Assembly: GCA_002478275.1 (NCBI GenBank)
Contig: DLMY01000050.1
Location: 1 to 56,107, forward strand
DNA from: Actinobacteria bacterium UBA7524
GTDB lineage: Bacteria; Actinomycetota; Coriobacteriia; Anaerosomatales; UBA912
Direction of reading: 5' to 3'
Length of the DNA: 56,107 nucleotides
Shown here piece by piece: positions 10,851 to 25,571 of the stretch. The notes beneath the pieces were generated by a model, which saw nothing but the letters and a program-made list of their open reading frames with translations, was not told the DNA's origin and searched no databases. Position 1 is the stretch's first letter, and the number at the start of each line of letters is the position of its first letter. The translations under genes were made by a program, and so were the position numbers.

Positions 10851-11071
10851 GAGTGCCCCCCTCTTGCGTGCGCCAGTTCGTCCGGCGCCTTGTGAATCAG
10901 TACCCTGTTCCCGAGGTGGCATGACTGCCGCTTGCCGATTCGTAGTCCTTGCCTCGCGCTCGCCCTCGAGTACTCAAGATGGTGCGAGGGAAGTAAGGGG
11001 TCGACCGGGTTGGGGCGACCGGGATTGTTGTCCGAGTCAGGCGCCCTCGCTATACTCGCCTTTGCGCTCGA

Positions 11072-11139
11072 AGCCGCCTGTGTGCGGCTCGCGCCACCGC
11101 GGAGAGGTGGCAGAGTGGTTGAATGCGGCGGTCTCGAAA
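11072..11139 (+). repeat. Left att repeat (tRNA leader plus 5' half to end of anticodon loop)
   Basis: AGCCGCCTGTGTGCGG...GCGGTCTCGAAA identical to 25319-25386. Confidence 0.95.
11101..11139 (+). pseudogene. Truncated 5' half of tRNA-Ser(CGA)
   Basis: Matches 25348-25386 then diverges right after the anticodon loop; no T arm follows. Confidence 0.9.
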
Positions 11140-11216
11140 GCCTCGGAACCGCAGGTCACAGGCATAGTTTGCCCCAGATAGAATCTTGAGCGGCCCCTAC
11201 TAGGGAGGGGCCGTCT

Positions 11217-11277
11217 TGGTGTCCGGAGTGGTGTCCGTGGTGTCGCCGGAGGTCACGTCGGACACATCGGTCACGTC
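11217..11277. repeat. Short repeat cluster inside left end: 3x TGGTGTC then 3x 9-mer GGWCACRTC
   Basis: TGGTGTC at 11217, 11229, 11238; GGTCACGTC GGACACATC GGTCACGTC at 11251-11277. Confidence 0.8.
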
Positions 11278-12362
11278 CCTGACGAGGCGATCCACTTCGC
11301 CACGGTATCCGGCCTCGTGGCTCGGTACCCCTCTTCTTCGGCGAGCGCTGCCGTGATCATCGCCGCGGTCCGCGTAGGGTCCTCGAAGTGCAGTTCGACG
11401 GCGCGCTTGCGACGTTGCTCGTAGGCCAACTGCTTGCACGCCTGGTCGCAGTAGCGTCGGTTGCCCCGTGCGACCCCGCTGTGGCGCACCCGCCAACGCC
11501 CGCACCTGTGACAACGCAGGAAGCCTGGCACCGCACCCTGGGCCTGGGCGAGTTGGTACCACATTAGCCGCCAGAGGCTGTCAGGGATCACTTGCAGCGA
11601 GTACCGCTTCTTCTCGTCGTCCACTGTGACGGCGTGGCTCAGGCCGTTCGCTAAGAAGACGTTGGTGATCTCGGCGAGGAGCGCCTGGCGGTACTCCTTG
11701 GTGTAGGCGTTCCCCTTGCGTGAGGGAAGTCGCAGAGTACTCTCACTTGCGTCGAGCGAGGCAGGAGTATGCAACAGGGCAAACGACGTCGTGGGCTTCG
11801 CGCCGAGCTTCCGGTCGAGCCACTGGGTCGTCCATGAGAGTGCCTGCTTCTTGCGCGCAAGGTCAGTATCTGAGTCTGCCTGCCACAGGCGCACGGCAAG
11901 GTGCATGAAATCCGCTGCGGCCCTCCAAGATGCAAGGGACTCGCCCTGGGTGTAGCACAGACCCTCCATGTTCCACACCTGAACGGACGGCAGACTCTCC
12001 TCTAGGCCGAGAAGGCCGTACGTCGCAGCGAAGGTAGCGCAGGCGCGCTCGAACTCGGCCCCGTTCTTGGTGGCCAGCTCCGCGAAGTTGAGGAACAGAG
12101 CGCCGTGCTCGATATCGAGGGGATCGTACCGCGCCGCGGACATGAGGTCGTCGATGCACTGATAGATCTCTCGGTGGACGGGGCTGCCACCTTTCGGATA
12201 GCGGCCTCCGCCAACGACTGCGTATTCCGGCCAACCCAGCATCCAGACCCGTTCTGCGAGGGCATCAGAGGGGTCGAGATCGGCGAAACCAACGCATGCC
12301 GGAGCCCTCTCCCAGCTGAATGCGACAAGCAGATCGGGTTTCGCCTCGTAGTCCTCGAGCAT
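11271..12362 (-). CDS. Hypothetical protein with CGNR-type zinc finger; putative element regulator
   Basis: CHRCGRW...NRRYCDQACKQLAYEQRRK; ATG after AGAAAG; divergent from the primase. Confidence 0.7.
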   Translation of the reverse strand: MLEDYEAKPDLLVAFSWERAPACVGFADLDPSDALAERVWMLGWPEYAVVGGGRYPKGGSPVHREIYQCIDDLMSAARYDPLDIEHGALFLNFAELATKNGAEFERACATFAATYGLLGLEESLPSVQVWNMEGLCYTQGESLASWRAAADFMHLAVRLWQADSDTDLARKKQALSWTTQWLDRKLGAKPTTSFALLHTPASLDASESTLRLPSRKGNAYTKEYRQALLAEITNVFLANGLSHAVTVDDEKKRYSLQVIPDSLWRLMWYQLAQAQGAVPGFLRCHRCGRWRVRHSGVARGNRRYCDQACKQLAYEQRRKRAVELHFEDPTRTAAMITAALAEEEGYRATRPDTVAKWIASSGT

Positions 12363-12484
12363 CTTTCTGAGTCCGTTTCGTGCGGGACGTACGATTTCTC
12401 GACGATAGCGTACTACGCAAACGCGGTCCCCTGCACCTAGCGAGATCGCACGAGGTGGTCTCACGGGCAAGGAAGGGGGCCGAA

Positions 12485-14845
12485 ATGGCCAACGACAAGG
12501 TGGGGGATTCCTCCCCGATCCCCGCAGAACTCCGCCAGCGCAAGCAGTGGGTCTGCGCGAAAGACAAGGTGCCAAAGCGTCCGGATGCCCCGACGCGCAA
12601 CGCCAGCACCACGGACCCCGCGACCTGGGGCACCTACGAGCAAGCGCGAGCAGCGGTCGAGGCGGGCAAGGCAGAAGAGGCGGGCTTCGTCTTTGCTGGA
12701 GACGATCCGTACGTGGGCATCGACCTGGATCACTGTCGCGATCCCGAGACTGGCGAGATCGAGGTATGGGCCCGGGAGATCATCGAACGGCTGGACTCGT
12801 TCTCGCAGCCGTCAGTCTCGGGGACTGGCGTGCACGTCTTCGTGCGCGGGGTCGTGGCGAGTGCGTACAAGAAGGGTAACGTCGAGGTTTACGACCGCGG
12901 GCGTTACTTCGTGACGCCCGAGACGCACCTGGACGGCACGCCCACGAGCATCCGCGACGTCGGCGACGTTTTGACCCTGCTCGATGACCTGCTGCCGCGG
13001 AAGGCCAAGCCAACTAGGGTGAAGACTCCTACACCGGATGCCGACATCAGCCTCCGGGCAAGCGACGAAGACGTCGTGCGTGCGCTGTCGCGGGGCTCGA
13101 ACGCGTCGAAATTCAAGGCGCTCTACGACGGTCGGTGGGAGCGTGCGGGAGATTACCCCTCGAAGTCCGAGGCCGACTGCGCGCTTGTGTCCATACTCGC
13201 CGAGAAGTGTTCCTCGCCAGCCCAGATCGACCGCATCTTCCGGTCATCAGGGCTCATGGATGCTAAGTGGGACGAGGTCCACTACGGTGACGGCGAGACG
13301 TACGGTCAGCACACCATCCGCTACGTCCTCGAGTCCCGGCATGCGAGCCAAGATGGTGCGCTGGGCACCATGACGGAGCAGATCTTGGCGATGCTCGAGG
13401 GACTCGAGCTGTTCTGCGATCCGAGTGGGGAGGCGTATGTCGCGGTCGAGATCAACGAGCGCAGCGAGGTGCATCGCATCGAGTCCACCCCGTTCGAGCG
13501 TCTTCTCGGAGAACTCTCGTACCGCTCGTATGGCAAGGCGCCGTCGGCTGAGGTGACCAATGCCGTCGTTGCGACGCTCGCCGCCCGTGCGCGATACGAG
13601 GGCAGTGTGGAAGAGGTCTTCGTTCGCGTCGGCAGGGCTCCTGGCAAGGTCTATGTCGATCTCGGCGATTCCACGCGACGCGTCGTCGAAATCGATGAGG
13701 AAGGCTGGCGGATCCTCGATGCCAGTCCGATTCGCTTCAGGCGTCGGGCCGGCATGCTGGCGCTTCCCACACCCGAGCATGATGGCTCGCTGGGCTGGTT
13801 GCGCGCCTGCCTGAATGTTCCGGAGGACGGCGCTTGGGCCCTCGTGCTGGGCTTGCTCGTGGGCGCGCTGCACCCCGAGGGTCCGTATCCTGTAGGAATC
13901 CTCCACGGCGAACAGGGGAGTGCGAAGTCAACCGCGGCCAGACTGATACGAGCGCTTGTGGACCCGGCATCGCCGCCTCTGCGCGGCACCCCCGGGTCCG
14001 TGGATGACCTCGTCATCGGTGCGTCGAGTTCATGGATGCTCGCCTTCGACAATCTCTCTGGTATCTCAGGCGTCTACTCCGACGTGATCTGCCAACTCTC
14101 CACGGGAGGCGGCTACGCGAAGCGCAGGCTCTACCGCGACGACGACGAGATCCTGTTTGACCTGAAGCGGCCCGTGCTCATCAACGGAATCAACGACCTG
14201 GCCAAGCGTGAGGATCTCGCGTCGCGGGCCCTGATCATCCGCATGCCACACATCCCCCGCTCCGAGAGGCGCCGGGAGGCCGTGATCATGGCGGAGTTCG
14301 AGGCGATGTACCCCAAGGTCCTTGGGGCGCTCTATGACGCCGTCTCGTGTGCACTCGGCCGAGTCTCCGAAGTCGAACTCAACGGTCATCCTCGCATGGC
14401 TGACTTCGCCGCGTGGATCGTGGCGGCGGAACCGGCGCTGCCCCTGGAGGATGGTGAGTTCCTGCGGGCCTACGAGCACAACCAGGAAGAGGTGGTGATG
14501 ACCGCGCTTGAAAGTGATGCGGTTGCAGTCGGCATCATCAACCTCGCCTACAGCCAACCGGGATGGCAGGGCACTATGAGCGAGATGCTGCACATCCTTA
14601 ACCGGGACATCGGCGAGGACCATCGGCGCGACCGGTGGTGGCCGAAGAACGCACGTGCGCTGAGCGACCGCGTCAGCCGGTTGGCGAGCTTCCTCTCTTC
14701 GGCGGGTGTCACGGTTGAGCATGCGAGGGACAACGAACGGAACCGGCGCAAGATCATCGTCCTACACGTCGATGACACCGTCCCCCGGGTGCACCTGGAC
14801 GAAGGCTACTTCGACTCCTTCATCCTCCAGAAGAGAGACTCCTGA
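12485..14845 (+). CDS. NrS-1-like primase-polymerase fused to a P-loop ATPase/helicase
   Basis: ASTTDPATWGTY, GIDLDHC, SVSGTGVHVF, EVYDRGRYF; helical-bundle motif SEAD..L...QIDRIFRSSGL..KWD; Walker A GEQGSAKS, FDN. Confidence 0.85.
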   Translation: MANDKVGDSSPIPAELRQRKQWVCAKDKVPKRPDAPTRNASTTDPATWGTYEQARAAVEAGKAEEAGFVFAGDDPYVGIDLDHCRDPETGEIEVWAREIIERLDSFSQPSVSGTGVHVFVRGVVASAYKKGNVEVYDRGRYFVTPETHLDGTPTSIRDVGDVLTLLDDLLPRKAKPTRVKTPTPDADISLRASDEDVVRALSRGSNASKFKALYDGRWERAGDYPSKSEADCALVSILAEKCSSPAQIDRIFRSSGLMDAKWDEVHYGDGETYGQHTIRYVLESRHASQDGALGTMTEQILAMLEGLELFCDPSGEAYVAVEINERSEVHRIESTPFERLLGELSYRSYGKAPSAEVTNAVVATLAARARYEGSVEEVFVRVGRAPGKVYVDLGDSTRRVVEIDEEGWRILDASPIRFRRRAGMLALPTPEHDGSLGWLRACLNVPEDGAWALVLGLLVGALHPEGPYPVGILHGEQGSAKSTAARLIRALVDPASPPLRGTPGSVDDLVIGASSSWMLAFDNLSGISGVYSDVICQLSTGGGYAKRRLYRDDDEILFDLKRPVLINGINDLAKREDLASRALIIRMPHIPRSERRREAVIMAEFEAMYPKVLGALYDAVSCALGRVSEVELNGHPRMADFAAWIVAAEPALPLEDGEFLRAYEHNQEEVVMTALESDAVAVGIINLAYSQPGWQGTMSEMLHILNRDIGEDHRRDRWWPKNARALSDRVSRLASFLSSAGVTVEHARDNERNRRKIIVLHVDDTVPRVHLDEGYFDSFILQKRDS

Positions 14846-14864
14846 GCGGATGCGCACCGCAGAT

Positions 14865-14925
14865 GATGTGTCCGACGTGACCGGAGAGCCTGTCACAACG
14901 ACGGAAGGGTCACGTCGGACACATC
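14865..14925. repeat. Perfect 18-bp inverted repeat after the primase gene; candidate replication origin
   Basis: GATGTGTCCGACGTGACC (14865-14882), 25-bp spacer, GGTCACGTCGGACACATC (14908-14925). Confidence 0.85.
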
Positions 14926-15048
14926 GGACGCGTGTCGGTCGGCGCGGATGCGTGCCTGGATGTCAGAGGCAGGGCAGAAGATGCACGATATGGAGGATGA
15001 CTACGATCCATTCCGACTGTTTGCAGAGCGAGGCGAGGGGGTGTCCCG

Positions 15049-15468
15049 TTGGTTCCAGGTAGAGCAGATCTCCTCGCGGTCGCCGCGTTCGCACCCCGCT
15101 TCGACGCCCCTGACTTCGTCGTGGGCTGGGATGTGCCGGGCTCCGTTGGTGAGGACGGCGTGGTCTCGATCGGTTGGTGGGAGCACTCACCCGCCGTATC
15201 CGAGTGGGCGCAGGCGCTATACGATCACCACATCATCGACCCGGAGTGCGACTATATGGGTGAGGCGAACCGGGAGTTGGGGCGGCAGGCGTTCGAGGCC
15301 CCTGAGTTGATTGGGACTCTCGAACTGCCCGCGCTTCGGATGTTGATGACAGCAATCGCACGCTCCGACCGCTTCGACTGGGGGAGCGGCCTATACGAAG
15401 AGGCGTTCGAGAAGGGGATCGCCCAGGCAGCCACAAGGCGGCTGGGAGAACTAGCCCTTGGCGGGTAA
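15049..15468 (+). CDS. DUF6508-like hypothetical protein
   Basis: LMTAIARSDRF...G..EEAFEKG....TRRL motif; start uncertain. Confidence 0.65.
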   Translation: MVPGRADLLAVAAFAPRFDAPDFVVGWDVPGSVGEDGVVSIGWWEHSPAVSEWAQALYDHHIIDPECDYMGEANRELGRQAFEAPELIGTLELPALRMLMTAIARSDRFDWGSGLYEEAFEKGIAQAATRRLGELALGG

Positions 15469-15477
15469 GGAGCATGG

Positions 15478-16167
15478 ATGAATGAAGAAGCACGCACGCA
15501 TCTTGAGCGGTATCGCAGCGAGTGGAGCGCGGTTGATGACACGCTCTACGCTCTTTGCGCTGGAGACAATCGGCCACACACATCTCGTCCTGTTGTCTTC
15601 GCGAAGGTGATCCTAATTGCAAGGGCCTACTCAACTCAGATTGAAAGGGGAATTCCTCTCGCGCCCGAGGACCGCATGGGATCGGGTTCGGCAATCACCC
15701 TCCTCGCCGACTGGATGTGCAAGAGCCAACAGCGGGTGGACGCACTCATAGCCCCTCTCCCGGCTGCCGATGCGGCGCCGTCCGCTGAGAACCTGCAGGT
15801 CTCTTGCAGCGCTGTACACGGACTGGTCAAGTTGCTCGTCGAAGGGCTCCTGTTGGAGCAGAGAGACAAGGTCGAGCAATCCGGGCGAAGGCGACCAAGG
15901 AACTACTCGCCCGTCTCCTTCGCGTCGAAGTACCTCCACTTCCACGCCCCCTGCGTACCGGTGTATGACTCCTACGCGGTGAACCATGCAAAGGACCTGC
16001 GTAAGCGTACGGAGTATGCAGACCTGGTGCTTGAGTGTCCGACTCTCACAGCCGACTACGCACGCTACTGCCGCGCATTGTGGGCTGCATCACGAACGAC
16101 TGGTTACGAGGATCTGACCGTCAAAGAGCTCGACGCAATCCTTCTGTCGACCAAGTGGTCTTCGTAG
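15478..16167 (+). CDS. Hypothetical protein, possible HhH-GPD/OGG-fold glycosylase-like
   Basis: AAGGAG RBS; SFASKYLHF..P..PVYDS and KELD motifs. Confidence 0.65.
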   Translation: MNEEARTHLERYRSEWSAVDDTLYALCAGDNRPHTSRPVVFAKVILIARAYSTQIERGIPLAPEDRMGSGSAITLLADWMCKSQQRVDALIAPLPAADAAPSAENLQVSCSAVHGLVKLLVEGLLLEQRDKVEQSGRRRPRNYSPVSFASKYLHFHAPCVPVYDSYAVNHAKDLRKRTEYADLVLECPTLTADYARYCRALWAASRTTGYEDLTVKELDAILLSTKWSS

Positions 16168-16218
16168 CCCGGATGTCACCAGTGCAAGGTTGCCCAGTGT
16201 TGCACTTGAACTCGAGCG

Positions 16219-17430
16219 TCACGCGTCGCGGTTCCCGCCGAACTTCGACTGCACGATGAACGGCAGCGCCACGGCGACCACAGCCACGACTCCCTTGACG
16301 GTCTTGGTGCCTACCTCCACACCTGCCGTCTTCAACTGTCCAGGGTCGTTGAGCGCGTCCATCCAGCGTGTTGGCACCATTGACCCTCGCTCGTCCTCGA
16401 TTCCCAGTGGAGCATGGAACTCACTGACGATCTCGGCGGTGGAGTTGAACGAGTCAACGACCGACCGCGCGGCAGGGAGATGCAGCAACACATTCGAGTT
16501 CGCAATCGCTCCTGCTCGCCTCATACGATCGATCAAGTGGCCGGTCGTCATAGCGATGTCCTTGCGACGCTCTCGTTGAGCCTCAAACAGGGCACGACGG
16601 TGCCCGCCAACGTCACCCGGAGCAGTCTCAAGCACGTGCTCAATCTCGAGCACCGCAAACTCATCTTGGAGCTGAAAACAACGGGCCAGAACGGCGAGCC
16701 AGACGCTCACTTCCCGCTCAACGTCGTCGGCCGCCTTGGCAAGTTGACCGACCTTCTTCTTGCGGTCCATCTTGTCGGCGAGGGCGCGAAGGCTCCGTAG
16801 GGCCAGCGCTTGTACCTCGAACAGCGTGCCCGACTCCGAATCAACCTTGCCCCAAGCGGTCTCTATGTTCCCGCCGTGCTCACGAATGGCCATGGCTTCC
16901 TTAATCGCGAGTGCAGCCCGATCCATCTTCGCCAAGACCTTGTCTCGCTCATTGCGCCGGGCATCGTCGAGCTTCTCGTCAATCCTGAGAAGCAGTGCTT
17001 TGAGCTCGTCTGCCTCGGACTGTTTGGCGAGCTGCATCATCAGCCCGCCAACGCCTGACAGAAGTACTGGATTGGTCCCGAGCGATCCTGCCCCGCTCTC
17101 AATCTGGATCCATTTCTCGATGGACCCTCGCGTTCCGATCATCGCGTGGCTGACACCGGGGGTCTTCGTCGGCGTCAGGCCAAACTGACGGACGCGCTCC
17201 GCGGACTCCCTTGTCAGCTTCACGTATCGCCCGGAGTTCTCAGCGACATCAGACGCCACGTGAGCGACCTCAGACCCGATTTCGAGCGCTCGCCCAATCT
17301 GCAAGTCCGTCGACGCTGACAAGAGGCCAATCGAGTCGAGGAACCGCTCGACAGCACCGGGCGCGCCAATAACCGCCAAGCCATCGTCGTCGCCAACCAG
17401 TTGGATCTCGTCAGAAGTCCGGTCCGTCAT
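16219..17430 (-). CDS. Hypothetical coiled-coil protein with C-terminal hydrophobic helix
   Basis: Long ORF directly downstream of mrr; GGGGG before ATG. Confidence 0.75.
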   Translation of the reverse strand: MTDRTSDEIQLVGDDDGLAVIGAPGAVERFLDSIGLLSASTDLQIGRALEIGSEVAHVASDVAENSGRYVKLTRESAERVRQFGLTPTKTPGVSHAMIGTRGSIEKWIQIESGAGSLGTNPVLLSGVGGLMMQLAKQSEADELKALLLRIDEKLDDARRNERDKVLAKMDRAALAIKEAMAIREHGGNIETAWGKVDSESGTLFEVQALALRSLRALADKMDRKKKVGQLAKAADDVEREVSVWLAVLARCFQLQDEFAVLEIEHVLETAPGDVGGHRRALFEAQRERRKDIAMTTGHLIDRMRRAGAIANSNVLLHLPAARSVVDSFNSTAEIVSEFHAPLGIEDERGSMVPTRWMDALNDPGQLKTAGVEVGTKTVKGVVAVVAVALPFIVQSKFGGNRDA

Positions 17431-17475
17431 CGGTGCTCGCCCCCCTACGCCGTTGCCGAATGAACGATCCCCCAT

Positions 17476-18507
17476 TTAGTCCTCATCCATCTTGGGCGCT
17501 GGGACGTAAACGCTGCGCAAAGGCAGAACGCCCTTATACTTCGAGTCGAAGGCTTCGTAGTACTCAAGCACTAGATCCACGAGTTCCGCGCCATCCACCA
17601 GCTGCAGGTTGTGCTTGTTCTGCGCGAAGTCCCTTGCCTGCTTGGTGTACTCGCCTAGCGTGACCAGGAGCCCAAACTCCTTGTTGTCAACGTTGCCGTA
17701 CAGGGCTTGGACGTCGGGCGCGCCCACTTTGCCCTCCGTACTCTTCACCTGGATCTTGACGATCGGGCCCTCGAACCCGAGGGAGTCCTTGCTCGCAGTA
17801 ATGTCGATACCGCCGTCAGGGCCAGGAGGTGCCACTTTCGTGCGGTACCCCATCGTGCGCATCAGGTGGGCTACGAATCCGGCGAAGGGGTGACCTTTCA
17901 GTTCTGTTGCGAGCGTCTTGAGGATGAAGTCCCGCGTTGTCTGCTCGATTTCCTCGACCACCAGCGCCACAGTGGGGTCTTCGTCAACCGGCGCCACCGG
18001 AGCAGCCCCCTCCAGAGCCGACAGGAACTCGTCGGCGTAGTTCTTGACCTGGAACAGGGTGAGCGCGGAGCCGATCTCGTACAGCGCTCCCTGAGAGAAG
18101 TGGGTGCGCGGCAGCGACTTCAACCATTTCACGGGGCGAACGCTGGCATAGGGATCGTCGGCTGTACCAGCGTACTTGTCGGCCATCTCAGGACGGAAGG
18201 CATACGGCCCTGTCACCTTGCCGATGTGGACCTCTCGATCTACCTGAGAGGGGTAGATGAACAGGTCGCCTTCCTCGACCTCGTGAGCGAAGCGGTACAG
18301 CACGCCCGCATATACCGGCACGGCACCCGCCTTGGTTGTCGGATACGCGGCAAGTACGGCGGCCTTGTACGCTTCCCGGTCAGCGCCGATCTTTGACAGG
18401 TCTCCGACGTCCGCCCAGCCTATGGCGACGACGTTCTCCTTCTTGAACTCGGCGTCCCCCTCGGCGTACTTGCCGGCATGAATTCCCCAGACCGTGACAT
18501 CCCCCAT
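17476..18507 (-). CDS. Mrr-family (type IV) restriction endonuclease
   Basis: PDGGIDI...QVKS catalytic motif; GLLVTLG.YT..A..FA; LQLVDG.ELV.L. Confidence 0.88.
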   Translation of the reverse strand: MGDVTVWGIHAGKYAEGDAEFKKENVVAIGWADVGDLSKIGADREAYKAAVLAAYPTTKAGAVPVYAGVLYRFAHEVEEGDLFIYPSQVDREVHIGKVTGPYAFRPEMADKYAGTADDPYASVRPVKWLKSLPRTHFSQGALYEIGSALTLFQVKNYADEFLSALEGAAPVAPVDEDPTVALVVEEIEQTTRDFILKTLATELKGHPFAGFVAHLMRTMGYRTKVAPPGPDGGIDITASKDSLGFEGPIVKIQVKSTEGKVGAPDVQALYGNVDNKEFGLLVTLGEYTKQARDFAQNKHNLQLVDGAELVDLVLEYYEAFDSKYKGVLPLRSVYVPAPKMDED

Positions 18508-18838
18508 GGCCGCCCTCTCTCGAAGTGATCCGACACGAGGTTAGCACTCGGCCACGACAAGTCTTCGTGCGTCTTGGCGGCCCCGGTATGCCAACGGCCA
18601 CCATCCTCGCCACCAATTCTAACGCTGCGAGCGTGGCTTCGTGCTCAAGTGCGGCGGTTCTCGGAAGCGCCAACGTTTCCCCCGGGATCCGCTGCCCACT
18701 CAATCCAGACAGGCTTGCTAGGGATTGGCTCGTCGAGTCGATAGCGAACAGTCCTACGCCTCGGTGTCCGCGAAACCGGTATGTCTGGTCCTCGCCGGAA
18801 GCAGAATCCTGGTGTCCCAGAAACCGAAGGAGGAGCCA

Positions 18839-19966
18839 GTGAGCGGATACATCGAGAAGCGTGGTCCAGATACCTTCCGATTGGTTGTCGATCTGCCCCG
18901 CGAGTCGTCGGGCAAGCGAGAACGCAAGACCAGGACCTTCCACGGCAGCCTGCGAGACGCCAAGAAGGCACTCGCTTCGTTTGCAGTAGAGGTGTCTCGC
19001 AAGACTGCAACCGACGGCGGCGAAATCACGTTCCGCGAGTTCGTCGAGACCGAGTACCTACCGGCTGCCAGAAACCAGGTCGGAGCAAAGACGTACGAGC
19101 GTTACGTGCAGGTCCTCACCCGCGACGTCCTGCCGCACCTCGGAGGCAAAGCGCTCGAAGACGTGGTCCGACGTGACGTCCAGGCCGTGATCAACGCCGC
19201 TGTCTCCAGGGGCAGGGCGGACAGTCGCGGCAAGGCTCTCTCGCCGAGAACGGTAGTGCACATCTTCCGTGTCACCCATCGCGTGTTCGTGTATGCCATG
19301 CGTGTTGGGCGACTTGACCGCAACCCTGCACAGTACATTGACCTACCGCGGATCGAGGTGCAGGAGCCCGTCGTGCCCGACGTCGACGACATACCGCGTC
19401 TGCTCGCGGTCTTCGCTGGGACGAAGTTCCACCTTCCGGTCTTGCTCGCGGTCACCACGGGCATGCGCCGAGGCGAGGTACTGGGCCTCCAGTGGAGGGA
19501 TGTCGACTTCGATGCAGGACTGCTCACTGTGGCCCGTTCCCTCGGAGCAACGGGAGAAGGTGCCTTCTTGAAGGAGCCGAAGACAAGGCGATCTCGTCGG
19601 ACGATGACCTTGCCTGCAGTGACGCTCGAGGCTCTGCGACGGACCCGGGAGACACTCGGCGAACCCGAGCCCGAGGACTTCGTGGTCCGAGGCCATCGCG
19701 GCGGGTACTGGCACCCCAACCAGTTCTCGTCGGAGTACGCCAGGGCGTTGAAGGAGACCGGGTTCACGTACCGCTTTCACGATCTTCGCCATGCACACGC
19801 ATCCCAGCTGCTTGCCCTGGGGACACCGGTACCGGTGGTGTCGGCACGCTTGGGGTATTGCGATGCGGCGACCACACTGCGCGTTTACGCGCACGTGCTG
19901 CCCGGGCAGGACGGTGCGGCGGTGGAGGCGCTCGACGGGGCGCTTGCGGAGGTGGGGCTAGGATAG
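18839..19966 (+). CDS. Tyrosine integrase
   Basis: GTG after AGGAGGAG; TGMRRGEVLGL.W.DVD, PKT, FHDLRH, RLGY...TTLRVYAH. Confidence 0.93.
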   Translation: MSGYIEKRGPDTFRLVVDLPRESSGKRERKTRTFHGSLRDAKKALASFAVEVSRKTATDGGEITFREFVETEYLPAARNQVGAKTYERYVQVLTRDVLPHLGGKALEDVVRRDVQAVINAAVSRGRADSRGKALSPRTVVHIFRVTHRVFVYAMRVGRLDRNPAQYIDLPRIEVQEPVVPDVDDIPRLLAVFAGTKFHLPVLLAVTTGMRRGEVLGLQWRDVDFDAGLLTVARSLGATGEGAFLKEPKTRRSRRTMTLPAVTLEALRRTRETLGEPEPEDFVVRGHRGGYWHPNQFSSEYARALKETGFTYRFHDLRHAHASQLLALGTPVPVVSARLGYCDAATTLRVYAHVLPGQDGAAVEALDGALAEVGLG

Positions 19967-20094
19967 GCACGCGTCCCTAGCCGCGTCGCGCAGGGGCGGC
20001 TACAAGATGTTGTCAGTGCATCGCAGTATCGTCTCACTAGCATCGATGGCCGGTATAGCCCCAGGCGTATACCGGCCTTGGCTGTTAGGATGTA

Positions 20095-20922
20095 GTGGTG
20101 ACGATACTCGCCAAGACACAGACCCCCAGACCCTTCCTGAAATGGGCTGGCGGCAAGACCCAACTCCTTTCGGAACTGCTTCCGCGGACGCCCGAGGAGT
20201 TCGGCGTGTATTTCGAGCCCTTTGTCGGGGGCGGCGCACTCTTCTTCAGCCTTCAGCCGGATCGAGCAGTGCTGGCGGATGCCAACGCGGAGTTGATCAA
20301 CTGCTATCAAGTTGTCCAAACGTCAGTGGAAGACCTCATCGAGGATCTCATGCTTCACGAGAACGACGAGGCCTACTACTACGCTCTACGGGCCGCTGAT
20401 CCCTCGGCTTTGAGTCCGGTCAGCAGGGCTTCCCGCTTCATCTACTTGAACCGCACGTGCTTCAACGGGCTGTATCGCGTGAATTCCCAAGGCCAGTTCA
20501 ACACTCCATTCGGTCGATACAGGAACCCTCGAATTTGTGACCCAGTGACTCTCCGTGCGGCCAGCGAGGCGCTTCAGAATACTGCGCTGGTTGTTGGCGA
20601 TTACGGGGGCGCGTTGCAGGAGGCCAGAAAGGGCGATTTCGTCTACCTCGATCCCCCATACGTGCCGGTCTCCAAGTACTCGGATTTCAAGCGTTACACC
20701 AGAGAGCAGTTCAGAGAGTCGGATCAGCGAGAACTGGCTCAGGAGTTTCGCCGCCTTACCGAGATCGGCTGCCACGTGATGCTGAGCAACAGTTGGCATC
20801 CCTTGGTGAAGGAGTTGTACGAGGGGTTTCAGATCGATCTCGTGGAAGCCCGGCGGCTCGTCAACTGCGATGCTTCCAAGCGAGGTCCCGTCGCCGAAGC
20901 GATCGTGCGGAACTATGGGTGA
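20095..20922 (+). CDS. Dam-like D12-class N6-adenine methyltransferase (M1)
   Basis: FLKWAGGK, YFEPFVGGG, YLNRTCFNGLYRVN, YLDPPY. Confidence 0.93.
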   Translation: MVTILAKTQTPRPFLKWAGGKTQLLSELLPRTPEEFGVYFEPFVGGGALFFSLQPDRAVLADANAELINCYQVVQTSVEDLIEDLMLHENDEAYYYALRAADPSALSPVSRASRFIYLNRTCFNGLYRVNSQGQFNTPFGRYRNPRICDPVTLRAASEALQNTALVVGDYGGALQEARKGDFVYLDPPYVPVSKYSDFKRYTREQFRESDQRELAQEFRRLTEIGCHVMLSNSWHPLVKELYEGFQIDLVEARRLVNCDASKRGPVAEAIVRNYG

Positions 20923-21982
20923 CTCATTGCCGCTCCGGCCAGTGGATCAAGCGCTACGTCAGATGGGCCGCTTCCCTGCGTCGCGTTTCATGGGAAGCAA
21001 AAGGCGCATCTTGAATTTCCTGCATGACGCGTTCATGCAGATCGAGTTCGGTACTGCGCTGGATGCGTTCTCGGGGGGAGGCTCCGTCTCCTACCTGCTG
21101 AAGAGCATGGGCAAAGCAGTCGACTCTAACGACTACCTGGCCTATGCACAGGTGGTCGCAATGGCAACCGTCGAGAACAAGTACGCGGTTCTCGACGAGG
21201 CAGATATTGAGATGTTGGCTAGCCCGTCCCGTCAGGCGCCCACCTTCATTCAGGACACCTTCAACGGTCTCTTCTTCACACCTGAAGACAACGCGTTCTT
21301 GGACCTGGTCTCAGGAAACATCGACAGACTGGCCGATCCCCACAAGCGGGCGATCGCCCGTGCCGCTCTATGCCGTGCCGCACTGAAGAAGCAGCCGAGG
21401 GGTGTCTTCACGGTGGTCGGTCACCGGTATGACGATGGAAGGGCCGACCTCAGCCGCTCGATGAGAGAGCAGTTCGTCCGTTCAGTCTTGGACTACAACG
21501 AGGCCGTCTTCGACAATGGGCGCTCGTGCCGAGCAGCCCAGGGCGACATCATGCAGCGCCTGGAGGCCAACTACGATCTCGTCTATCTCGATCCTCCCTA
21601 CTACTCTCCGCACTCCGACAACGACTACCTCAGGCGCTACCACTTCGTTGAGGGGCTCGCGACGTACTGGACCGCGGCTCCGATCATCGAGACCTCCAAG
21701 ACCAAGCGTCTAGAGCGGCGTCCCACGCCTTTCGCGGCGCGGAAGTCGATCTATGGGGCCCTGGACACGCTGTTTGAGAGGTTCAGCACCAGCACTCTAG
21801 CCGTCTCGTATTCGTCGAACTCGATTCCCACTCGGGAGGAGCTAAGCGAGATGCTGCAGAGACACAGTCGGAAGGTAGAGGTCTTCGACGTAGACCTCAC
21901 CTACAGTTTCGGGACTCATTCTCACAAGGTGGGTGACAACCGCAACGCAGTCAGCGAGTTCCTTTTCGTGGGACGACCATGA
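20915..21982 (+). CDS. Second D12-class N6-adenine methyltransferase (M2)
   Basis: RFMGSK, DAFSGGGSVS, YLDPPY, YHFVEGL; overlaps M1 stop. Confidence 0.9.
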   Translation: MGDSLPLRPVDQALRQMGRFPASRFMGSKRRILNFLHDAFMQIEFGTALDAFSGGGSVSYLLKSMGKAVDSNDYLAYAQVVAMATVENKYAVLDEADIEMLASPSRQAPTFIQDTFNGLFFTPEDNAFLDLVSGNIDRLADPHKRAIARAALCRAALKKQPRGVFTVVGHRYDDGRADLSRSMREQFVRSVLDYNEAVFDNGRSCRAAQGDIMQRLEANYDLVYLDPPYYSPHSDNDYLRRYHFVEGLATYWTAAPIIETSKTKRLERRPTPFAARKSIYGALDTLFERFSTSTLAVSYSSNSIPTREELSEMLQRHSRKVEVFDVDLTYSFGTHSHKVGDNRNAVSEFLFVGRP

Positions 21983-23865
21983 AGACGTGGAATATCGGCA
22001 ATACGACGGTACGCAACCCTTCACGCATCAGGGATGGCCTCGCTGTCCTGAGCGCCGGCTTCGCTGGTTGCCAGTGGACCGCAGAGGCGGAAGAGGAGTT
22101 CTTCGGCGCATTGGTTGAGGCGGGCGTCTACGTGCTCAGCGGAGCGCCTCTCGCTGGTACTTCTGCTGGTCAGGGTGGACGCAAGTGGGCGTCCGCCTTC
22201 AATCAACTCGGATTCGCACGAGCGTGGCGTCGCACCGGCGCAGTTGAGATCACTCCCGTGGGCCAAGCCCTGCTGGGGGCGGAGAGTGAAGACGAGATCA
22301 ATGAGGTCTTCCTTCGCCAACTCCTGAAGTACCACCTGCCGTCCGCAATTGAGCATGACGGGAAGTTCGCAGGGTTTGACATCGCGCCCTTCTGGCTGTT
22401 CTTGCGCATCATGGCCGCTCTTGCCCAGAGCAACGAGCGAGGTCTCTCTAAGGAAGAGATTGGCCTGTTCATCGTCACGACTATCAGAGATGGAGACGAT
22501 GACCGCGTGCTCGAAGAGATCCGCGCATACAGGGCGGAGCGCGATGCGTTGGTCGGAAGGGTGGCCAAGGGCCGATACGACGGGCTTCGCCGTCGGCAGA
22601 AAGTGGAGAGCCTCTACGCCGCAGAGGCCAAGGCGAAATACGGCGCGCTCGAACGGGCACGCGACACCGCTCTCTCGACCCCCGAAGGGATCGACTCACC
22701 AGAAGTCCTGTCGCTGCTTGACCTGGTGATCGCAACAGGCAAGGGATCCAGGACTCAGCGAGCCCTCCGACTGCGTGCAGCGCTCCTAGATGGCCTACGA
22801 GGGGGTGCTTCACAAGACGATCTGTGGCAACTGGCTAGCGACACCTGGGCGACGACCAAAGGGCGCAGCCTGTTCGACTATGCCGATACCGCCGTACGCT
22901 ACTTCGCCCTAAGTGGGCTGTTCAGTATCGCGGGATCGAGGGTCGTTCTTCGTGAGAACTCGCTCGCCTTCGCCGAACAACTCCTTGCCCAGGGGGAGTC
23001 TCCCTACGACGAGCAGCACTACCTCGAGGAGTTCTACGACCCCTCATTGCCGATCTTGCCGAGTGATGATGTCTCGTTCTTGCTCGCCCAATACCGCTCG
23101 ATGCGAGGACGACTGGGAGTCAGTAAGAGCGAGGACGATGGACTTGAGGCGCGGGAACTGAAGCGGCGGCTCAGCGAACTGCGGTCCCAACTAGCGGAGC
23201 GCCAGGAGAATGACTTCTACCTTCGGCAGGCGGAGAGCCTGCCTGATATCGAGCGGTTCTTCGAAGAAATTGAAGACGGCAGTCTACTGGGGGGCTCCGC
23301 GTATAGGCCCGCGTTCTACGAGTGGAACATCTGGCGCTGCTTCCTCGCAGTCAACGAGATAACCTGCCCGATCTCGGAGACTAGGGGCTTCAAGATCGAT
23401 GAGGAGATCTACCCAGTTCACCATGCTGCGGGCGGCCAACCAGACATGATGTTTCGATATCGCCACGGCGTACTTGTCGTCGAAGCGACTCTCTCTACTG
23501 GCGAGAATCAGTGGGCTCAAGAGCAGGAGCCGGTGCAGCGGCACGTCAAGTCCGTAATGGTTTCGAACCCGGATGTTCACGTGGTCGGCATCTTCGTTGC
23601 TCCTAAGATTGACATGAACACGGCCATCAACTTCCGCAGGGCCATGGGCTGGTTTGGGGATGCGGGGGAGAGGCGTCTTGACATCATTCCGGTAACGACA
23701 GATCAACTCCGGGGTCTCATGCGGCGATTCGAGCACGAAGGCTTCCGTTCAGACCAGATGTTCAATCTCTTTCTCCGCATGCTCGATTTGCGGGACGAAG
23801 TGGACACTGCTGCGGCCTGGCTGCAGGCCATCGACCAAGCGATTCGGGCGGAAGTCATCGTATAG
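21979..23865 (+). CDS. AlwI-family type IIS restriction endonuclease
   Basis: W..GNTTVRNP.R, DYADT..RYF..SGL, EWNIWR, HAAGGQPD...VEATL, EPV.RH, FVAP; ATGA overlap with M2. Confidence 0.88.
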   Translation: MKTWNIGNTTVRNPSRIRDGLAVLSAGFAGCQWTAEAEEEFFGALVEAGVYVLSGAPLAGTSAGQGGRKWASAFNQLGFARAWRRTGAVEITPVGQALLGAESEDEINEVFLRQLLKYHLPSAIEHDGKFAGFDIAPFWLFLRIMAALAQSNERGLSKEEIGLFIVTTIRDGDDDRVLEEIRAYRAERDALVGRVAKGRYDGLRRRQKVESLYAAEAKAKYGALERARDTALSTPEGIDSPEVLSLLDLVIATGKGSRTQRALRLRAALLDGLRGGASQDDLWQLASDTWATTKGRSLFDYADTAVRYFALSGLFSIAGSRVVLRENSLAFAEQLLAQGESPYDEQHYLEEFYDPSLPILPSDDVSFLLAQYRSMRGRLGVSKSEDDGLEARELKRRLSELRSQLAERQENDFYLRQAESLPDIERFFEEIEDGSLLGGSAYRPAFYEWNIWRCFLAVNEITCPISETRGFKIDEEIYPVHHAAGGQPDMMFRYRHGVLVVEATLSTGENQWAQEQEPVQRHVKSVMVSNPDVHVVGIFVAPKIDMNTAINFRRAMGWFGDAGERRLDIIPVTTDQLRGLMRRFEHEGFRSDQMFNLFLRMLDLRDEVDTAAAWLQAIDQAIRAEVIV

Positions 23866-23913
23866 AGCGAATCTCGTGATCAGAAAAAAAATCACCAAAA
23901 AGAGAAAGATCTC

Positions 23914-23941
23914 TTGACTTTTCCATTCCACGGGATAGTAT
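23914..23941 (+). promoter_or_regulatory. Sigma70-like promoter with A-rich upstream tract, for the DGQHR gene
   Basis: TTGACT-16 nt-TAGTAT preceded by A-tracts at 23882-23907. Confidence 0.6.
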
Positions 23942-24044
23942 TCAGTCAGAAGCGCTTCCCAGATGACCGGAGTCTCGAGCCACAAACCGCTGCGACGGCA
24001 GCACTAAACCGGCGAGAGACCCAACAGACAGAAGGAGTAGAGCA

Positions 24045-25163
24045 ATGCCTAGTACTGAAGATGTACGTCATGTCGCCTCAATCGACGCCATTGCGACAGG
24101 CCAAGATGATGTCCGACTGTTCGTCGGCGCAGCAAAGGCCAAGGATCTGATCCGCGTCACGACCGTGGACGAATACAAGCCCAACCTGGACCCGAACGAT
24201 CCTGATCAGGGCTACCAGCGTCCGCCGGAGCGGAGCAGGATCACTCGGATCGGTAAGTACCTCATTAGTGGAGAGGGTGGGGGTCTCTTCCCGACAGCCG
24301 TTCTGCTCGCTGCGAGGTCTCCGCTCGCATATGACCGTCGCGAAGGCACCGTGGAAGTGTCCTCCGATGACCCGCTACAGATCGTGGACGGTCAGCATCG
24401 GCTCGCGGGCCTCAAGTATGCGATCGACGAGAAGGGTGCAGCCCACCTTGGTGAGTACAGCATCCCCGTTGTGATCATGGAGACGCCCGATCGCATCACT
24501 GAGATGAACCAGTTCCTTATCGTCAACGGTACCGCCAAGCAAGTCCGGACTGACCTTGTGAACATGATTCTCACGGCCACGTACGCGGACGTTGACCGAG
24601 GCGATATCCCGAAGCGCGACCTCTGGAAGATCGTTGTAGCCAACGTGGTCGATCGCCTGGCAAAGGATCCTGAATCGCCGTGGTACGAACTGATCGCCCT
24701 CCCAGGTGAGGTTAGCCGAGGTGGAGCGATGCCGATCCGGGCCACATCGTTCATCACCAGTCTGCGGCCCGTGTACCTGTGGCTGAAGGAGGCAAGCGGT
24801 ATCCTCGACCAGCGGTGCAGTTCTACGGATGACGAAATCGACTACATGTACGAGATCGTGAGCGCCTACTGGCGTGCAGTTGCAGACGTGGTGCCGGCTG
24901 CCTTCGAGGATCCCTCGCAGTACGTGATCCAGAAGACGCCGGGTGTCTTCTCGCTGCACATGCTCCTCCGCCACCTCCTCGGAGACATGTACCGCGGTCG
25001 CAGGTCGTTTGATCGTGAGACCTTCGCGGAGTTCCTCTCTGAGAGTCCCGAGGTGACGGACCCAGGCTTCTGGAGCCGGTCCGAGCAGAGGGCGTCTGTG
25101 TTCGGGTCGATGAAGGGATTCCAGGACCTCTACGACATCCTCAAGGAACCCTACGCCCAGTAG
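24045..25163 (+). CDS. DGQHR-domain (DndB-like) protein
   Basis: GYQR, FPTAVLL, IVDGQHRLAGL, QFLIVN; AAGGAG RBS. Confidence 0.88.
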   Translation: MPSTEDVRHVASIDAIATGQDDVRLFVGAAKAKDLIRVTTVDEYKPNLDPNDPDQGYQRPPERSRITRIGKYLISGEGGGLFPTAVLLAARSPLAYDRREGTVEVSSDDPLQIVDGQHRLAGLKYAIDEKGAAHLGEYSIPVVIMETPDRITEMNQFLIVNGTAKQVRTDLVNMILTATYADVDRGDIPKRDLWKIVVANVVDRLAKDPESPWYELIALPGEVSRGGAMPIRATSFITSLRPVYLWLKEASGILDQRCSSTDDEIDYMYEIVSAYWRAVADVVPAAFEDPSQYVIQKTPGVFSLHMLLRHLLGDMYRGRRSFDRETFAEFLSESPEVTDPGFWSRSEQRASVFGSMKGFQDLYDILKEPYAQ

Positions 25164-25182
25164 TCCCAGTTATCGTCGAGAG

Positions 25183-25218
25183 AAAGGGAGGGAGTCCTTC
25201 GGGGCTCCCTTTCCTCTT
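25183..25218 (+). terminator. Intrinsic terminator of the DGQHR gene
   Basis: GGGAGTCC-TTCG-GGGCTCCC followed by TTTCCTCTT. Confidence 0.75.
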
Positions 25219-25230
25219 GGGGCTATCGGT

Positions 25231-25267
25231 GGGTGTCAACTTGGTGTCCGACGTGTCCGACCTGACC
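25231..25267. repeat. Short repeat cluster inside right end
   Basis: GGGTGTC 25231, TGGTGTC 25242; GACGTGTCC GACCTGACC at 25250-25267, inverted relative to 11251-11277. Confidence 0.7.
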
Positions 25268-25318
25268 GTTTCAGTTGTTCCGGGCCTGTGCAGCCGATAT
25301 ACTCGCACGTGCGCTTCG

Positions 25319-25386
25319 AGCCGCCTGTGTGCGGCTCGCGCCACCGCGGAGAGGTGGCAGAGTGGTTGAATGCGGCGGTCTCGAAA
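25319..25386 (+). repeat. Right att repeat (element-supplied tRNA leader plus 5' half)
   Basis: Identical to 11072-11139. Confidence 0.95.
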
Positions 25387-25440
25387 ACCGTTAGGCGGGT
25401 TACCCCCGTCTCGAGGGTTCGAATCCCTCCCTCTCCGCCA
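25348..25440 (+). tRNA. tRNA-Ser(CGA)
   Basis: GGAGAGG/CCTCTCC stem, loop CT-CGA-AA, long variable arm, GGTTCGAATCC, CCA. Confidence 0.97.
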
Positions 25441-25562: not shown

Positions 25563-25571
25563 AATGTGCGT

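Follow-up and report, generated by a model that had tools for sequence, protein, structure and literature searches.

The window, that is the whole stretch of 56,107 nucleotides that was analysed, contains an island of 14,179 bp bounded by two direct repeats, the right-hand one of which overlaps an intact tRNA-Ser(CGA) gene. Host-type genes flank the island: to its left one for a CWB2 wall protein, to its right those for P-II and Amt. The features of the island and its borders are as follows, in the order of the window.

11028-11056, + strand: host-side promoter on the presumed displaced fragment (TTGTCC, 17 nt, TATACT), called by the promoter scan
11072-11139, + strand: putative attL identity block, a 68-nt exact repeat with the 29-nt leader and tRNA nt 1-39 (presumed displaced 5' fragment 11101-11139)
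11140-25318, no strand: island body, 14,179 bp, bounded by the repeats
11191-11213, no strand: GC-rich hairpin about 50 nt inside the left end, 8-bp stem in the fold
11219-11265, no strand: left-arm (P') motif cluster, with a full 15-mer at 11251-11265 (- strand) and GTGTCCG cores at 11219 and 11231
11271-12575, - strand: hypothetical protein, ORF of 434 aa with the start not fixed, coding-like GC by codon position
12380-14845, + strand: primase-polymerase, start probably downstream of 12575 (Pfam NrS-1 polymerase HBD 6.4e-14; PHROG DNA primase families 6e-58)
14865-14925, no strand: two copies of the element motif as a perfect inverted repeat of 18 nt with 25 nt between the arms, shortly after the primase stop (repeat and motif search)
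15049-15468, + strand: DUF6508 protein (Pfam 2.8e-17)
16219-17475, - strand: hypothetical protein of 418 aa, coding-like GC pattern
17476-18507, - strand: Mrr-type nuclease, PADLOC candidate defence protein PDC-S02 (Pfam Mrr_cat 4.6e-28; PDLC04819 1.9e-128)
18839-19966, + strand: tyrosine integrase of 375 aa, P0001 (Pfam Phage_integrase, Phage_int_M and SAM_3; PHROG 1 integrase 4e-63)
20095-21982, + strand: two adjacent N6-adenine methyltransferase genes, 20095-20922 and 20870-21982 (Dam family 5.6e-85)
21979-23865, + strand: AlwI-family restriction endonuclease (Pfam RE_AlwI 5.5e-71; PADLOC REase_II)
24045-25163, + strand: DGQHR-domain (DpdB/DndB-like) protein (TIGR03187 3.5e-33; PADLOC DpdB 3.9e-21)
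25185-25216, + strand: 12-bp hairpin 3' of the DGQHR gene and upstream of the putative element-borne promoter (fold of 25164-25235: -35.6 kcal/mol, z -2.7)
25244-25267, + strand: right-arm (P) motif copies, two overlapping 15-mers with one mismatch each
25275-25303, + strand: putative element-borne tRNA promoter (TTGTTC and TATACT 17 nt apart, followed by the CGCACGTGCGCT box), which keeps register with the promoter at attL
25319-25386, + strand: putative attR identity block, 68-nt exact repeat
25348-25440, + strand: intact tRNA-Ser(CGA), nt 1-39 in the repeat and nt 40-93 in right-flank sequence (ARAGORN, Rfam)

The initial annotation had described a 68-bp direct repeat made of 29 bp of leader and the tRNA 5' half up to the end of the anticodon loop, with the broken copy upstream and the intact tRNA downstream, and all of this was borne out. 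A script gave 11072-11139 and 25319-25386 (offset 14,247) as the longest exact direct repeat (68 nt), ARAGORN placed the tRNA on the + strand at 25348-25440 with the anticodon at position 35, and in the Rfam tRNA alignment of this segment (60 bits vs a cut-off of 29) the anticodon loop is formed by nt 33-39, so that the repeat, consisting of the leader and tRNA nt 1-39, stops at the last base of the loop. Beyond this base the upstream copy continues with GCCTCGG and the tRNA with ACCGTT, and the upstream copy was called as a tRNA neither by ARAGORN nor by Rfam at E<=1. At lower stringency the repeat extends over 116 nt at 84% identity (11027-11142 and 25274-25389). The 68-mer is far beyond chance, as the runner-up direct repeat in the region is merely 39 nt long at 79%. 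No third copy of the repeat and no internal copy of any part of the tRNA was found within the island, and blastn-short matches elsewhere did not exceed 13 nt. Tyrosine integrases that target tRNA genes normally duplicate the 3' part of the tRNA and leave the host promoter on it; here the identity block consists of the leader and the 5' part, and a repeat of the tRNA 3' half was not found in the window, save for T-arm similarity to other tRNAs. The GC content of the island is 0.613 vs 0.645 for the remaining window (0.627 in the left and 0.590 in the right part of the island), and the tetranucleotide distance, compared over the whole window, peaks at 20-25 kb.

With regard to the gene content, the two methyltransferase genes match positions 22-277 and 302-642 of a single PADLOC type II methyltransferase model of 643 positions. 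Searches of Pfam, PHROG, NCBIfam and PADLOC gave no family for the ORFs at 11271-12575 and 16219-17475; in the Atlas, the clusters nearest to the 11271-12575 product consist of Actinomycetota proteins without a name, 438-450 aa in length (score 0.96). A DNA translocase, a relaxase or other transfer genes, the hallmark of integrative conjugative elements (ICEs), were not found in the scanned island ORFs with Pfam, PHROG and NCBIfam, three larger ORFs being without any family. No Xis-like or excisionase family was found with Pfam among 26 ORFs of the island and flanks, and among 72,556 plasmids megablast found no match to the island.

Upstream of the leader the 19-mer CTATACTCGCCTTTGCGCT is present at 11050 and also upstream of tRNA-Ser(GGA) at 3413, with the diverged counterpart GATATACTCGCACGTGCGCT at 25297, which confirms the identity of the upstream promoter with that of tRNA-Ser(GGA), and the divergence of the downstream copy, to which the initial annotation had drawn attention. 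All three promoters (at 11028, at 25275 and that of tRNA-Ser(GGA)) share TTGnnn, a 17-nt spacer and TATACT; the promoter scan called the one at 11028-11056, while the other two were counted by hand from the sequence, and the site at 25275-25303 was missed by the consensus scan because its -35 agrees at 3/6 positions only. In the right arm the -35 and -10 hexamers with their 17-nt spacing and the promoter box are all retained in register with the host copy. Between the element and host copies the leader is identical at 29/29 and the promoter part at 35/51 positions, and identity falls from 68/68 to 35/51 exactly at 11071/25318, the foot of a hairpin in the leader. Among the loci listed from other genomes (see below), promoter identity to the copies of relatives ranges from 15 to 42/51, with the element promoter nearest to L017, L070 and L088 (40-41/51) and the host-side promoter nearest to L063 and L086 (42/51); the 11028-11056 promoter region matches the native upstream region of L063 at 93.7% over 95 nt. 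As the two copies are about as different as between genera and are nearest to different relatives, the element arm has the appearance of a tRNA-Ser promoter that came from a different lineage.

Other Coriobacteriia-type genomes have the CGCACGTGCGCT box natively ahead of tRNA-Ser(CGA), and it is typical of Coriobacteriia tRNA-Ser promoters. Native occurrence of the 25298-type upstream sequence in relatives had been named at the outset as a point that would speak against an element-borne promoter, and the outcome was divided: the TATACTCGCACGTGCGCT box is native in the distant relatives L024, L069 and L017, where ordinary host genes lie upstream, whereas L063, nearest in promoter sequence among the loci listed, has an 11050-type promoter. 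Since the TATACTCGCACGTGCGCT box is class-wide, its native occurrence cannot discriminate. The converse assignment, with the 11050-type sequence foreign and the 25297-type native, was rejected, as the 11050-type lies next to the host flank, is the same as the host's tRNA-Ser(GGA) box and has its best match in L063. Everything upstream of position -29 of the sole intact tRNA is island DNA, including a complete promoter-like site, and wherever in the 68-bp block the crossover fell, the presumed working tRNA is parted from the promoter that adjoins the host genes of the left flank.

The leader hairpin, at about 11070-11087, consists of perfectly inverted 6-bp repeats separated by 6 nt. RNAalifold did not predict it unaided, but in a pair count on the supplied structure it is conserved with covariation across 33 leaders, which suggests selection at the RNA or promoter level. 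The terminator scan called no terminator at either end of the island, the hairpin at 11191-11213 being passed over because it is without a T run. Transcripts from the orphaned promoter may read through into the island, with this GC-rich hairpin lying about 50 nt inside it.

Both ends of the island were assigned to one element because they share a 15-nt motif, GTGTCCGACGTGACC, which is also present internally. The motif has six matches with at most two mismatches in the window vs 0.47 expected, a number reached in 0/100 shuffles, and five of the six are in the island: one in the left arm, two in the right arm and two as the perfect internal inverted repeat. This significance is limited to the 15-mer, as the heptamer GTGTCCG is not enriched window-wide (17 observed vs 16.7 expected).

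The integrase gene, its start taken from the database protein, is uninterrupted, and its product aligns end to end with relatives of 375-377 aa and matches PF00589, PF22022 and PF14659, while the Xer and integron models of NCBIfam reach 28-51 bits vs cut-offs of 220-435. Integrase genes usually adjoin an att site; this one is central in the island, at distances of 7.7 kb (attL) and 5.4 kb (attR). The active site of tyrosine recombinases comprises Arg, Lys, His-x-x-Arg, His/Trp and Tyr, and in 26/26 aligned sequences R210, K248, H314, R317 and Y350 are invariant. In the box-II column, on the other hand, His is found in 25/26 sequences, as well as at the same position in the solved integrases 3nkh, 2a3v and 6emy, vs Tyr340 in the window integrase, which may therefore be impaired; since related recombinases have Trp there, the site may tolerate an aromatic residue. 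Six close homologues, at 59-69% identity, are on metagenome contigs and the next are at 41% or below; in the protein database the integrase's own cluster is known from the window contig alone. A tblastn search of 50,697 phage records with the integrase matched 2310 records, all below 60% identity (28-30% for the best 25 of the 2310), and gave no phage attP usable for comparison.

We also scanned other genomes with the 39-nt 5' half, which is common to many phyla; the scan gave at least 120 loci from many phyla, all in distant relatives, with 2-kb flanks for 80 of them. Among the matches listed (123 in 120 loci) there were 116 intact tRNAs, five cut by contig ends and two fragments. One of these fragments, in L070, has ordinary host genes upstream and is broken after the same base as the upstream copy in the window, followed by the same five nucleotides (GCCTC) and then by a gene for a caspase-domain protein. 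The 15-nt element motif was not found there, and the L070 insertion is therefore taken to be a different element. In blastn and tblastn searches with the flanks and 17 proteins, nothing beyond the tRNA and promoter was shared with the listed loci apart from one weak CWB2 match, and a true empty site was not found among them. With tblastx against L063, tRNA-Ser(GGA) was found ahead of tRNA-Ser(CGA) on one strand in both, at a distance of 1.8 kb in L063.

Taken together, we consider it quite likely that the locus holds an integrative element of about 14.2 kb in tRNA-Ser(CGA) in the reverse (5') configuration, one which supplies the promoter, the leader and the 5' half of the gene. That an integrative element replaces the tRNA 5' half and promoter had been the central claim of the initial annotation, and it is upheld by the integrase and defence genes between the repeats, the common end motif and the promoter-like site in the right arm; this structural reading is the best one because the right arm holds a complete tRNA-type promoter. 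The element would be a cryptic one of the primase-polymerase/integrase kind, with a load of restriction genes and further defence genes, in an uncultured Coriobacteriia-type actinobacterium. One arm of its attP would consist of a complete cassette for tRNA expression (the promoter, the conserved hairpin of the leader and tRNA nt 1-39) and the other of unrelated DNA, with recombination, presumably carried out by the central integrase, most likely falling within the 7-nt anticodon loop and with the anticodon stem as core sites. The host promoter, leader and 5' half would thereby have been displaced 14 kb upstream as a dead fragment (attL), and the working tRNA (attR) would be made up of the promoter, leader and 5' half of the element joined to the 3' half of the host. 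The element promoter is thus predicted to drive the working tRNA, and the orphaned host promoter may still fire. A pure anticodon-loop crossover does not by itself explain the mosaic of a fully identical leader and a diverged promoter part.

It is this mosaic which speaks for a crossover in the leader hairpin of the same island, where the identity block has its left edge; identity drops there, and in both sequence and fold the hairpin is more perfectly palindromic than the anticodon stem-loop. The promoter alone would then have been exchanged, the working tRNA and leader would be native, and the leader and 5' half at attL would be element-borne baggage. We regard such a crossover as improbable, as it leaves unexplained both why the tRNA match is perfect for 39 nt up to the last anticodon-loop base, and no further, and why the unrelated insertion in L070 has the same end base and the same five nucleotides, and covariation across the 33 leaders already accounts for the conservation of the hairpin; moreover, anticodon-centred sites are the commonest class documented in the counts of PMC4383910. 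A promoter exchanged in the leader hairpin would likewise be element-borne. It is about as improbable that at least two elements, tandem or nested, make up the island, such as one with the primase (11140-18500) and one with the integrase and restriction genes (18500-25318), in which case the two repeats would not stem from one attP. The central integrase with divergent gene blocks on either side and the difference in GC between the left and right parts would fit such a composite, but no internal copy of the repeat or of a tRNA part was found, and the 15-nt motif, which recurs in the two outer arms and next to the primase gene, links the two halves.

A different question is whether an element that had integrated as described has since become immobile, a fixed relic with its repeats kept alike by gene conversion. 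This is possible, though we hold it to be the less likely state of the island. Several features agree with it, namely Tyr340 in place of the His of 25/25 aligned relatives and three solved integrases, the central position of the integrase gene, the lack of a match to an Xis-like Pfam family among the 26 ORFs, the lower-GC restriction module between integrase and attR, which can be read as accumulated cargo, and the mosaic identity, which fits conversion; yet the repeats are perfect over 68 nt, the integrase gene is full length with its remaining catalytic residues intact, and the aromatic residue may be tolerated. Finally, the repeat could be an artefact or unrelated to integration, arising from a metagenome chimera at the tRNA segment or a segmental duplication of the promoter-proximal part. 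The Amt proteins most similar to that of the window (91% identity) belong to metagenome-type records, which points to an uncultured organism, the integrase cluster is found on the window contig alone, and tRNA segments are classic chimera joints; a chimera would nevertheless need two independent mis-joins enclosing an integrase island with matching arm motifs, and the break in the anticodon loop and its parallel in L070 fit site-specific recombination, so that we consider this explanation very improbable.

The integrative element in 5' configuration which we favour invites one further reading, which joins several of the observations and is doubtful as a whole: a small integrase clade could be specialised for the 5' half of tRNA-Ser(CGA) and carry a complete foreign promoter-leader-5' half cassette. 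With the cassette carried along, every integration would place a host gene of essential type under element-supplied control. The element would also gain a strong, growth-rate-tuned host tRNA promoter antisense to its leftmost gene, possibly sensing host physiology on its behalf, and the drop from 100% to 69% identity where the leader meets the promoter would be the trace of repeated exchange between the element and host copies.

Among known systems, the island resembles the 5'-fragment islands of the Islander collection, in which 159 of 3919 tRNA islands have a displaced 5' fragment and an anticodon-centred attP is the commonest class (2083/3919), according to Table 1 and the counts of Hudson, Lau and Williams (2015, PMC4383910). 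As in those islands, the full tDNA (25348-25440) and its cognate fragment (11101-11139) have one orientation (both +), with the fragment 14,247 nt upstream, the break is anticodon-centred, and a tyrosine integrase that is neither Xer nor integron type lies between the two. The length of 14,179 bp is within the range of 2-200 kb, and the ORFs over the fragment (10849-11181 and 10932-11189) are without a Pfam family. Set against the islands as counted in PMC4383910, the present one differs in its recognisable tRNA-type promoter-leader arm and in an integrase that is near neither end. It is a clean bacterial case of a minority use of tRNA sites (about 4%), with a borrowed promoter readable from the sequence: an element in 5' configuration must bring a promoter as well as a gene part, which also makes the island a test case for the evolution of an attP arm that has to stay functional as promoter and leader. 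It should be useful for annotating islands in uncultured Coriobacteriia, and island-finding software must allow for 5' fragments.

In gene content, the island is closest to the cryptic primase-polymerase elements as treated by Kazlauskas et al. (2018, PMC5862659), which combine an integrase and an archaeo-eukaryotic-type primase-polymerase with att direct repeats, often in tRNA genes; as in the elements described there, virion or conjugation genes were not found. The families described in that work are of the PrimPol-PV1 type, whereas the domain found here by Pfam is an NrS-1-type helix bundle. With no transfer-gene families found in the scanned ORFs, the island does not group with ICEs, including the integrative conjugative elements of actinomycetes. 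The defence cargo (restriction system, Mrr-like nuclease and DGQHR protein) rides here on an element in 5' configuration, an arrangement which, according to the relevant passages of the reviews, is rarely met in bacteria and characterises pTN3-like archaeal elements (PMC6563490, PMC8371274, PMC5495485); section 7 of PMC6563490 cites an earlier bacterial case in which the 5'-distal part of a tRNA gene takes part in recombination.

The pTN3-like/TKV4-type archaeal integrases, as characterised in Cossu et al. (2017, PMC5495485) and PMC8371274, likewise have the tRNA 5' half as attB and part the rebuilt tRNA from its original promoter. There, integration splits the integrase gene, in which attP is located, and expression of the tRNA is attributed to the integrase promoter. 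In the window, by contrast, the integrase ORF (18839-19966) is whole and lies 5.4 kb from attR, unlike the split gene of the 'suicidal' pTN3/SSV-type integrases, the promoter is a dedicated one of the tRNA type, and the host is a bacterium. The 5' arrangement is uncommon, yet it is already described in archaea and occasionally in bacteria, and the island fits within it as no new category.

The stretches 11072-11139 and 25319-25386, compared by script, are identical over 68 nt, and this repeat consists of a 29 nt leader followed by nucleotides 1-39 of tRNA-Ser(CGA). Since the Rfam alignment places the anticodon loop at nt 33-39, the final base of the repeat is the last base of that loop. ARAGORN called three tRNA genes in the window, including tRNA-Ser(CGA) at 25348-25440 (+), which scored 60 bits against a cut-off of 29 in the Rfam alignment; the displaced copy at 11101-11139, which runs into unrelated sequence beyond the repeat, was called by neither ARAGORN nor Rfam. 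A repeat search extended the similarity further to the left (116 nt at 84%, 11027-11142 vs 25274-25389), and no third copy of the 68-bp repeat was found. The initial annotation had described a 68-bp direct repeat stopping at the end of the anticodon loop, with the broken copy upstream, the intact tRNA downstream, and a 19-mer that the upstream copy, though not the diverged downstream one, has in common with the tRNA-Ser(GGA) promoter at 3413; this observation is confirmed in every detail, and the finding is real.

The repeats enclose 14,179 bp, with the following gene content:

Genes of the island and its flanks, from left to right
Left flank, outside the island: CWB2 cell-wall protein gene
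Leftmost in the island, (-) strand: ORF of 434 aa, function not assigned; codon-position GC coding-like, closest Atlas clusters made up of unnamed proteins from actinobacteria
Next: primase-polymerase with NrS-1-type helix-bundle domain
Next: DUF6508 protein
Next: two more ORFs of unknown function
Next: Mrr-type nuclease (PADLOC candidate system PDC-S02, 1.9e-128)
Next: tyrosine integrase (identical database protein of 375 aa, start 18839)
20095-21982: two N6-adenine methylases, jointly spanning one fused 643-position methylase model
Directly after: AlwI-family endonuclease
Rightmost in the island: DGQHR (DpdB/DndB-like) protein
Right flank, outside the island: AbiEi/AbiEii pair, then the P-II/Amt operon

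With a GC of 0.613 against 0.645 for the remainder of the window, the island is a little richer in AT, and nowhere in the window does tetranucleotide usage deviate more than in its restriction module. The two methylase genes share 53 nt, and their products correspond to positions 22-277 (N-terminal part) and 302-642 (C-terminal part) of the same PADLOC model; the pair is a gene that has been split or one that naturally occurs as two. The AbiEi/AbiEii toxin-antitoxin/abortive-infection pair (25515-27097) adjoins the 3' side of the tRNA, before the host P-II/Amt operon, and is flanked by no 3'-half tRNA repeat.

Six proteins related to the integrase are 59-69% identical to it, each metagenome-derived and on a contig of at most 16.5 kb; the next best match is at ≤41%, and the best 25 phage matches listed are at 28-30%. 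R210, K248, H314, R317 and Y350 are invariant among 26 aligned members of the family, while the histidine column of box II (the 'LGH' box) holds His in 25 of the 26, as it does in three solved integrases, and Tyr in the window integrase (codon 340, TAT, 19856-19858). Profile searches with Pfam, PHROG and NCBIfam found no virion, conjugation or excisionase families in the island. Given the Tyr340 substitution, the central position of the integrase gene and the lack of a detectable excisionase, the island may no longer be mobile.

A 15-nt motif, GTGTCCGACGTGACC, occurs six times at ≤2 mismatches (0.47 expected; none of 100 shuffles reached six), and five of these occurrences are inside the island:

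Copies of the 15-nt motif in the island
11251-11265: left arm, one copy, ~110 nt inside the left end
14865-14925: internal, perfect 18-nt inverted pair directly after the primase gene
25244-25267: right arm, two overlapping copies, ~55-75 nt before the right-hand repeat begins

Arm-type or operator sites of a putative element-encoded DNA-binding protein would look like these copies. The presence of the motif at both ends and inside disfavours an arrangement of two unrelated, adjacent elements, and argues that both ends are part of one element. A 16-nt near-copy of the motif is also found within the integrase gene (19166-19181).

Upstream of both copies of the repeat, in the same register, TTGnnn and TATACT are separated by 17 nt; the left promoter was called by a promoter scan, and the right one, whose -35 matches at only 3/6 positions, was not. 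We scanned genome contigs with the 39-nt 5' half of the tRNA, which gave at least 120 loci. A TAYACT box is located 30-60 nt upstream in 34 of these listed loci, all from Coriobacteriia-type or unclassified Actinomycetota MAGs, many of which share an extended box, TATACTCGC-nnnn-GCGCT. The displaced-fragment variant of this box (CTTT at the variable positions) is native in locus L063, and the island-arm variant (ACGT) is native in L024, L069 and L017, downstream of ordinary host genes (M6 peptidase, ABC-2 permease and L,D-transpeptidase, respectively). The initial annotation had named native 25298-type sequence in relatives as refuting its reading; these distant relatives literally carry it, yet, with the box being a promoter feature of the whole class, this has no discriminating value.

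The promoter part itself (-80 to -30) is more informative: the two window copies are identical at 35/51 positions, no more than is seen between different genera, and among the loci listed the island copy is closest to L017, L070 and L088 (40-41/51) and the displaced copy to L063 and L086 (42/51). From this comparison, the island arm looks like a tRNA-Ser(CGA) promoter originating in another lineage. Wherever the crossover fell in the 68-bp block, the sole intact tRNA has island DNA throughout on its 5' side beyond -29, and the promoter that adjoins the left-flank host genes is now followed by a 39-nt tRNA stump. An element that would have inserted with its own promoter and tRNA 5' half, as initially proposed, is the best-supported reading of the sequence.

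The identity stops on the last base of the anticodon loop, and the anticodon stem around it supplies an imperfect inverted repeat of the kind that core sites should have, which suggests a crossover in the loop; anticodon-centred attP sites form the largest class in the data given for the Islander survey of tRNA-gene islands (2083/3919; PMC4383910). The 123 matches to the 39-mer in the at least 120 loci listed comprised 116 intact tRNAs, five cut by contig ends and two fragments. One of these fragments, in the Actinomycetota MAG locus L070, breaks after the same base as that of the window, with the next five bases also GCCTC, and thus independently supports the anticodon loop. It has a native-type promoter and host genes upstream (MscS channel, S11 peptidase), and, downstream of the break, a caspase-domain gene with internal 64-nt repeats (L070 2001-4039); this inserted DNA lacks the 15-nt motif and is otherwise unrelated to the island, and the contig stops before an integrase or an intact tRNA is reached.

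A competing crossover site is a leader hairpin right where the identity block begins on its left side, formed by a perfect inverted repeat of 6 bp around a 6-nt spacer. Crossover there would account for the step from 35/51 (promoter) to 68/68 (leader and 5' half) within one position (11071/11072 and 25318/25319), but leaves the sharp stop at the anticodon loop in two genomes unaccounted for. A single crossover in the anticodon loop does not account for the identity mosaic at the left edge, for which gene conversion between the repeats and an earlier homologous exchange are possibilities. The hairpin is kept in 33 Coriobacteriia-type leaders (79% of cells paired vs 67.5% in shuffles; 20 cells with double changes vs 7.3, 0/500 shuffles), and was not predicted by RNAalifold alone. 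It is present at 11070-11087 and 25317-25334 and also in L017, L024, L035, L063, L069 and others, and by eye the leader end (GCCACC) is complementary to tRNA nt 7-12.

Other loci also carry partial copies of this tRNA. In the gammaproteobacterial MAG locus L111 (oriented 301-578), a 5' fragment broken in the T arm starts 185 nt upstream of the start of the intact copy, and is possibly what is left of a 5'-type insertion at a different sublocation. In L069, the 3' part of the tRNA and the sequence downstream of it recur 1.5 kb beyond the intact tRNA (3505-3629; 82% identity with window 25378-25506 over 129 nt), and this copy resembles a small island or scar of the conventional 3' type in that gene. 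The 39-nt 5' half is identical in genomes labelled cyanobacteria, Rubrobacteria, Planctomycetia, Bacteroidota, gammaproteobacteria and others among the at least 120 loci; the full tRNA is identical, among the loci listed, in L036 (Anaerosomatales MAG), L050 (Coriobacteriia MAG) and L100 (uncultured Actinomycetes MAG). The nearest Amt proteins are 91% identical to that of the window, and the named matches, at 63-78%, come mainly from MAGs of Coriobacteriia or Actinomycetota. L063 and the window share the order tRNA-Ser(GGA), tRNA-Ser(CGA) on the same strand, with a spacing of 1.8 kb in L063 (stored 1947-2039 and 3837-3930) vs 7.5 kb in the window (3466-3558 to the displaced fragment at 11101), and no similar genes between the two tRNAs.

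A literature search that targeted the configuration, not the clade, found no publication on this island or integrase clade. Section 7 of PMC6563490 cites one bacterial and several archaeal cases of recombination at the tRNA 5' part, and Table 1 of the Islander survey gives a 5' fragment in 159 islands vs a 3' fragment in 3760 (PMC4383910). As stated in a review of archaeal tyrosine recombinases, bacterial recombinant tRNA genes retain their original promoter with very few exceptions (PMC8371274), and pTN3-like integrases target the 5' half, the tRNA then being expressed from the integrase promoter, an arrangement described as seldom met in bacteria (PMC8371274; PMC5495485). The island belongs to a known, uncommon class and is not a new kind of system: it agrees with the Islander class, as set out in that survey, on every point tested, and differs from the archaeal pTN3-like type, as these sources portray it, in that its integrase gene is unsplit and lies far off and its tRNA-type promoter is a dedicated one.
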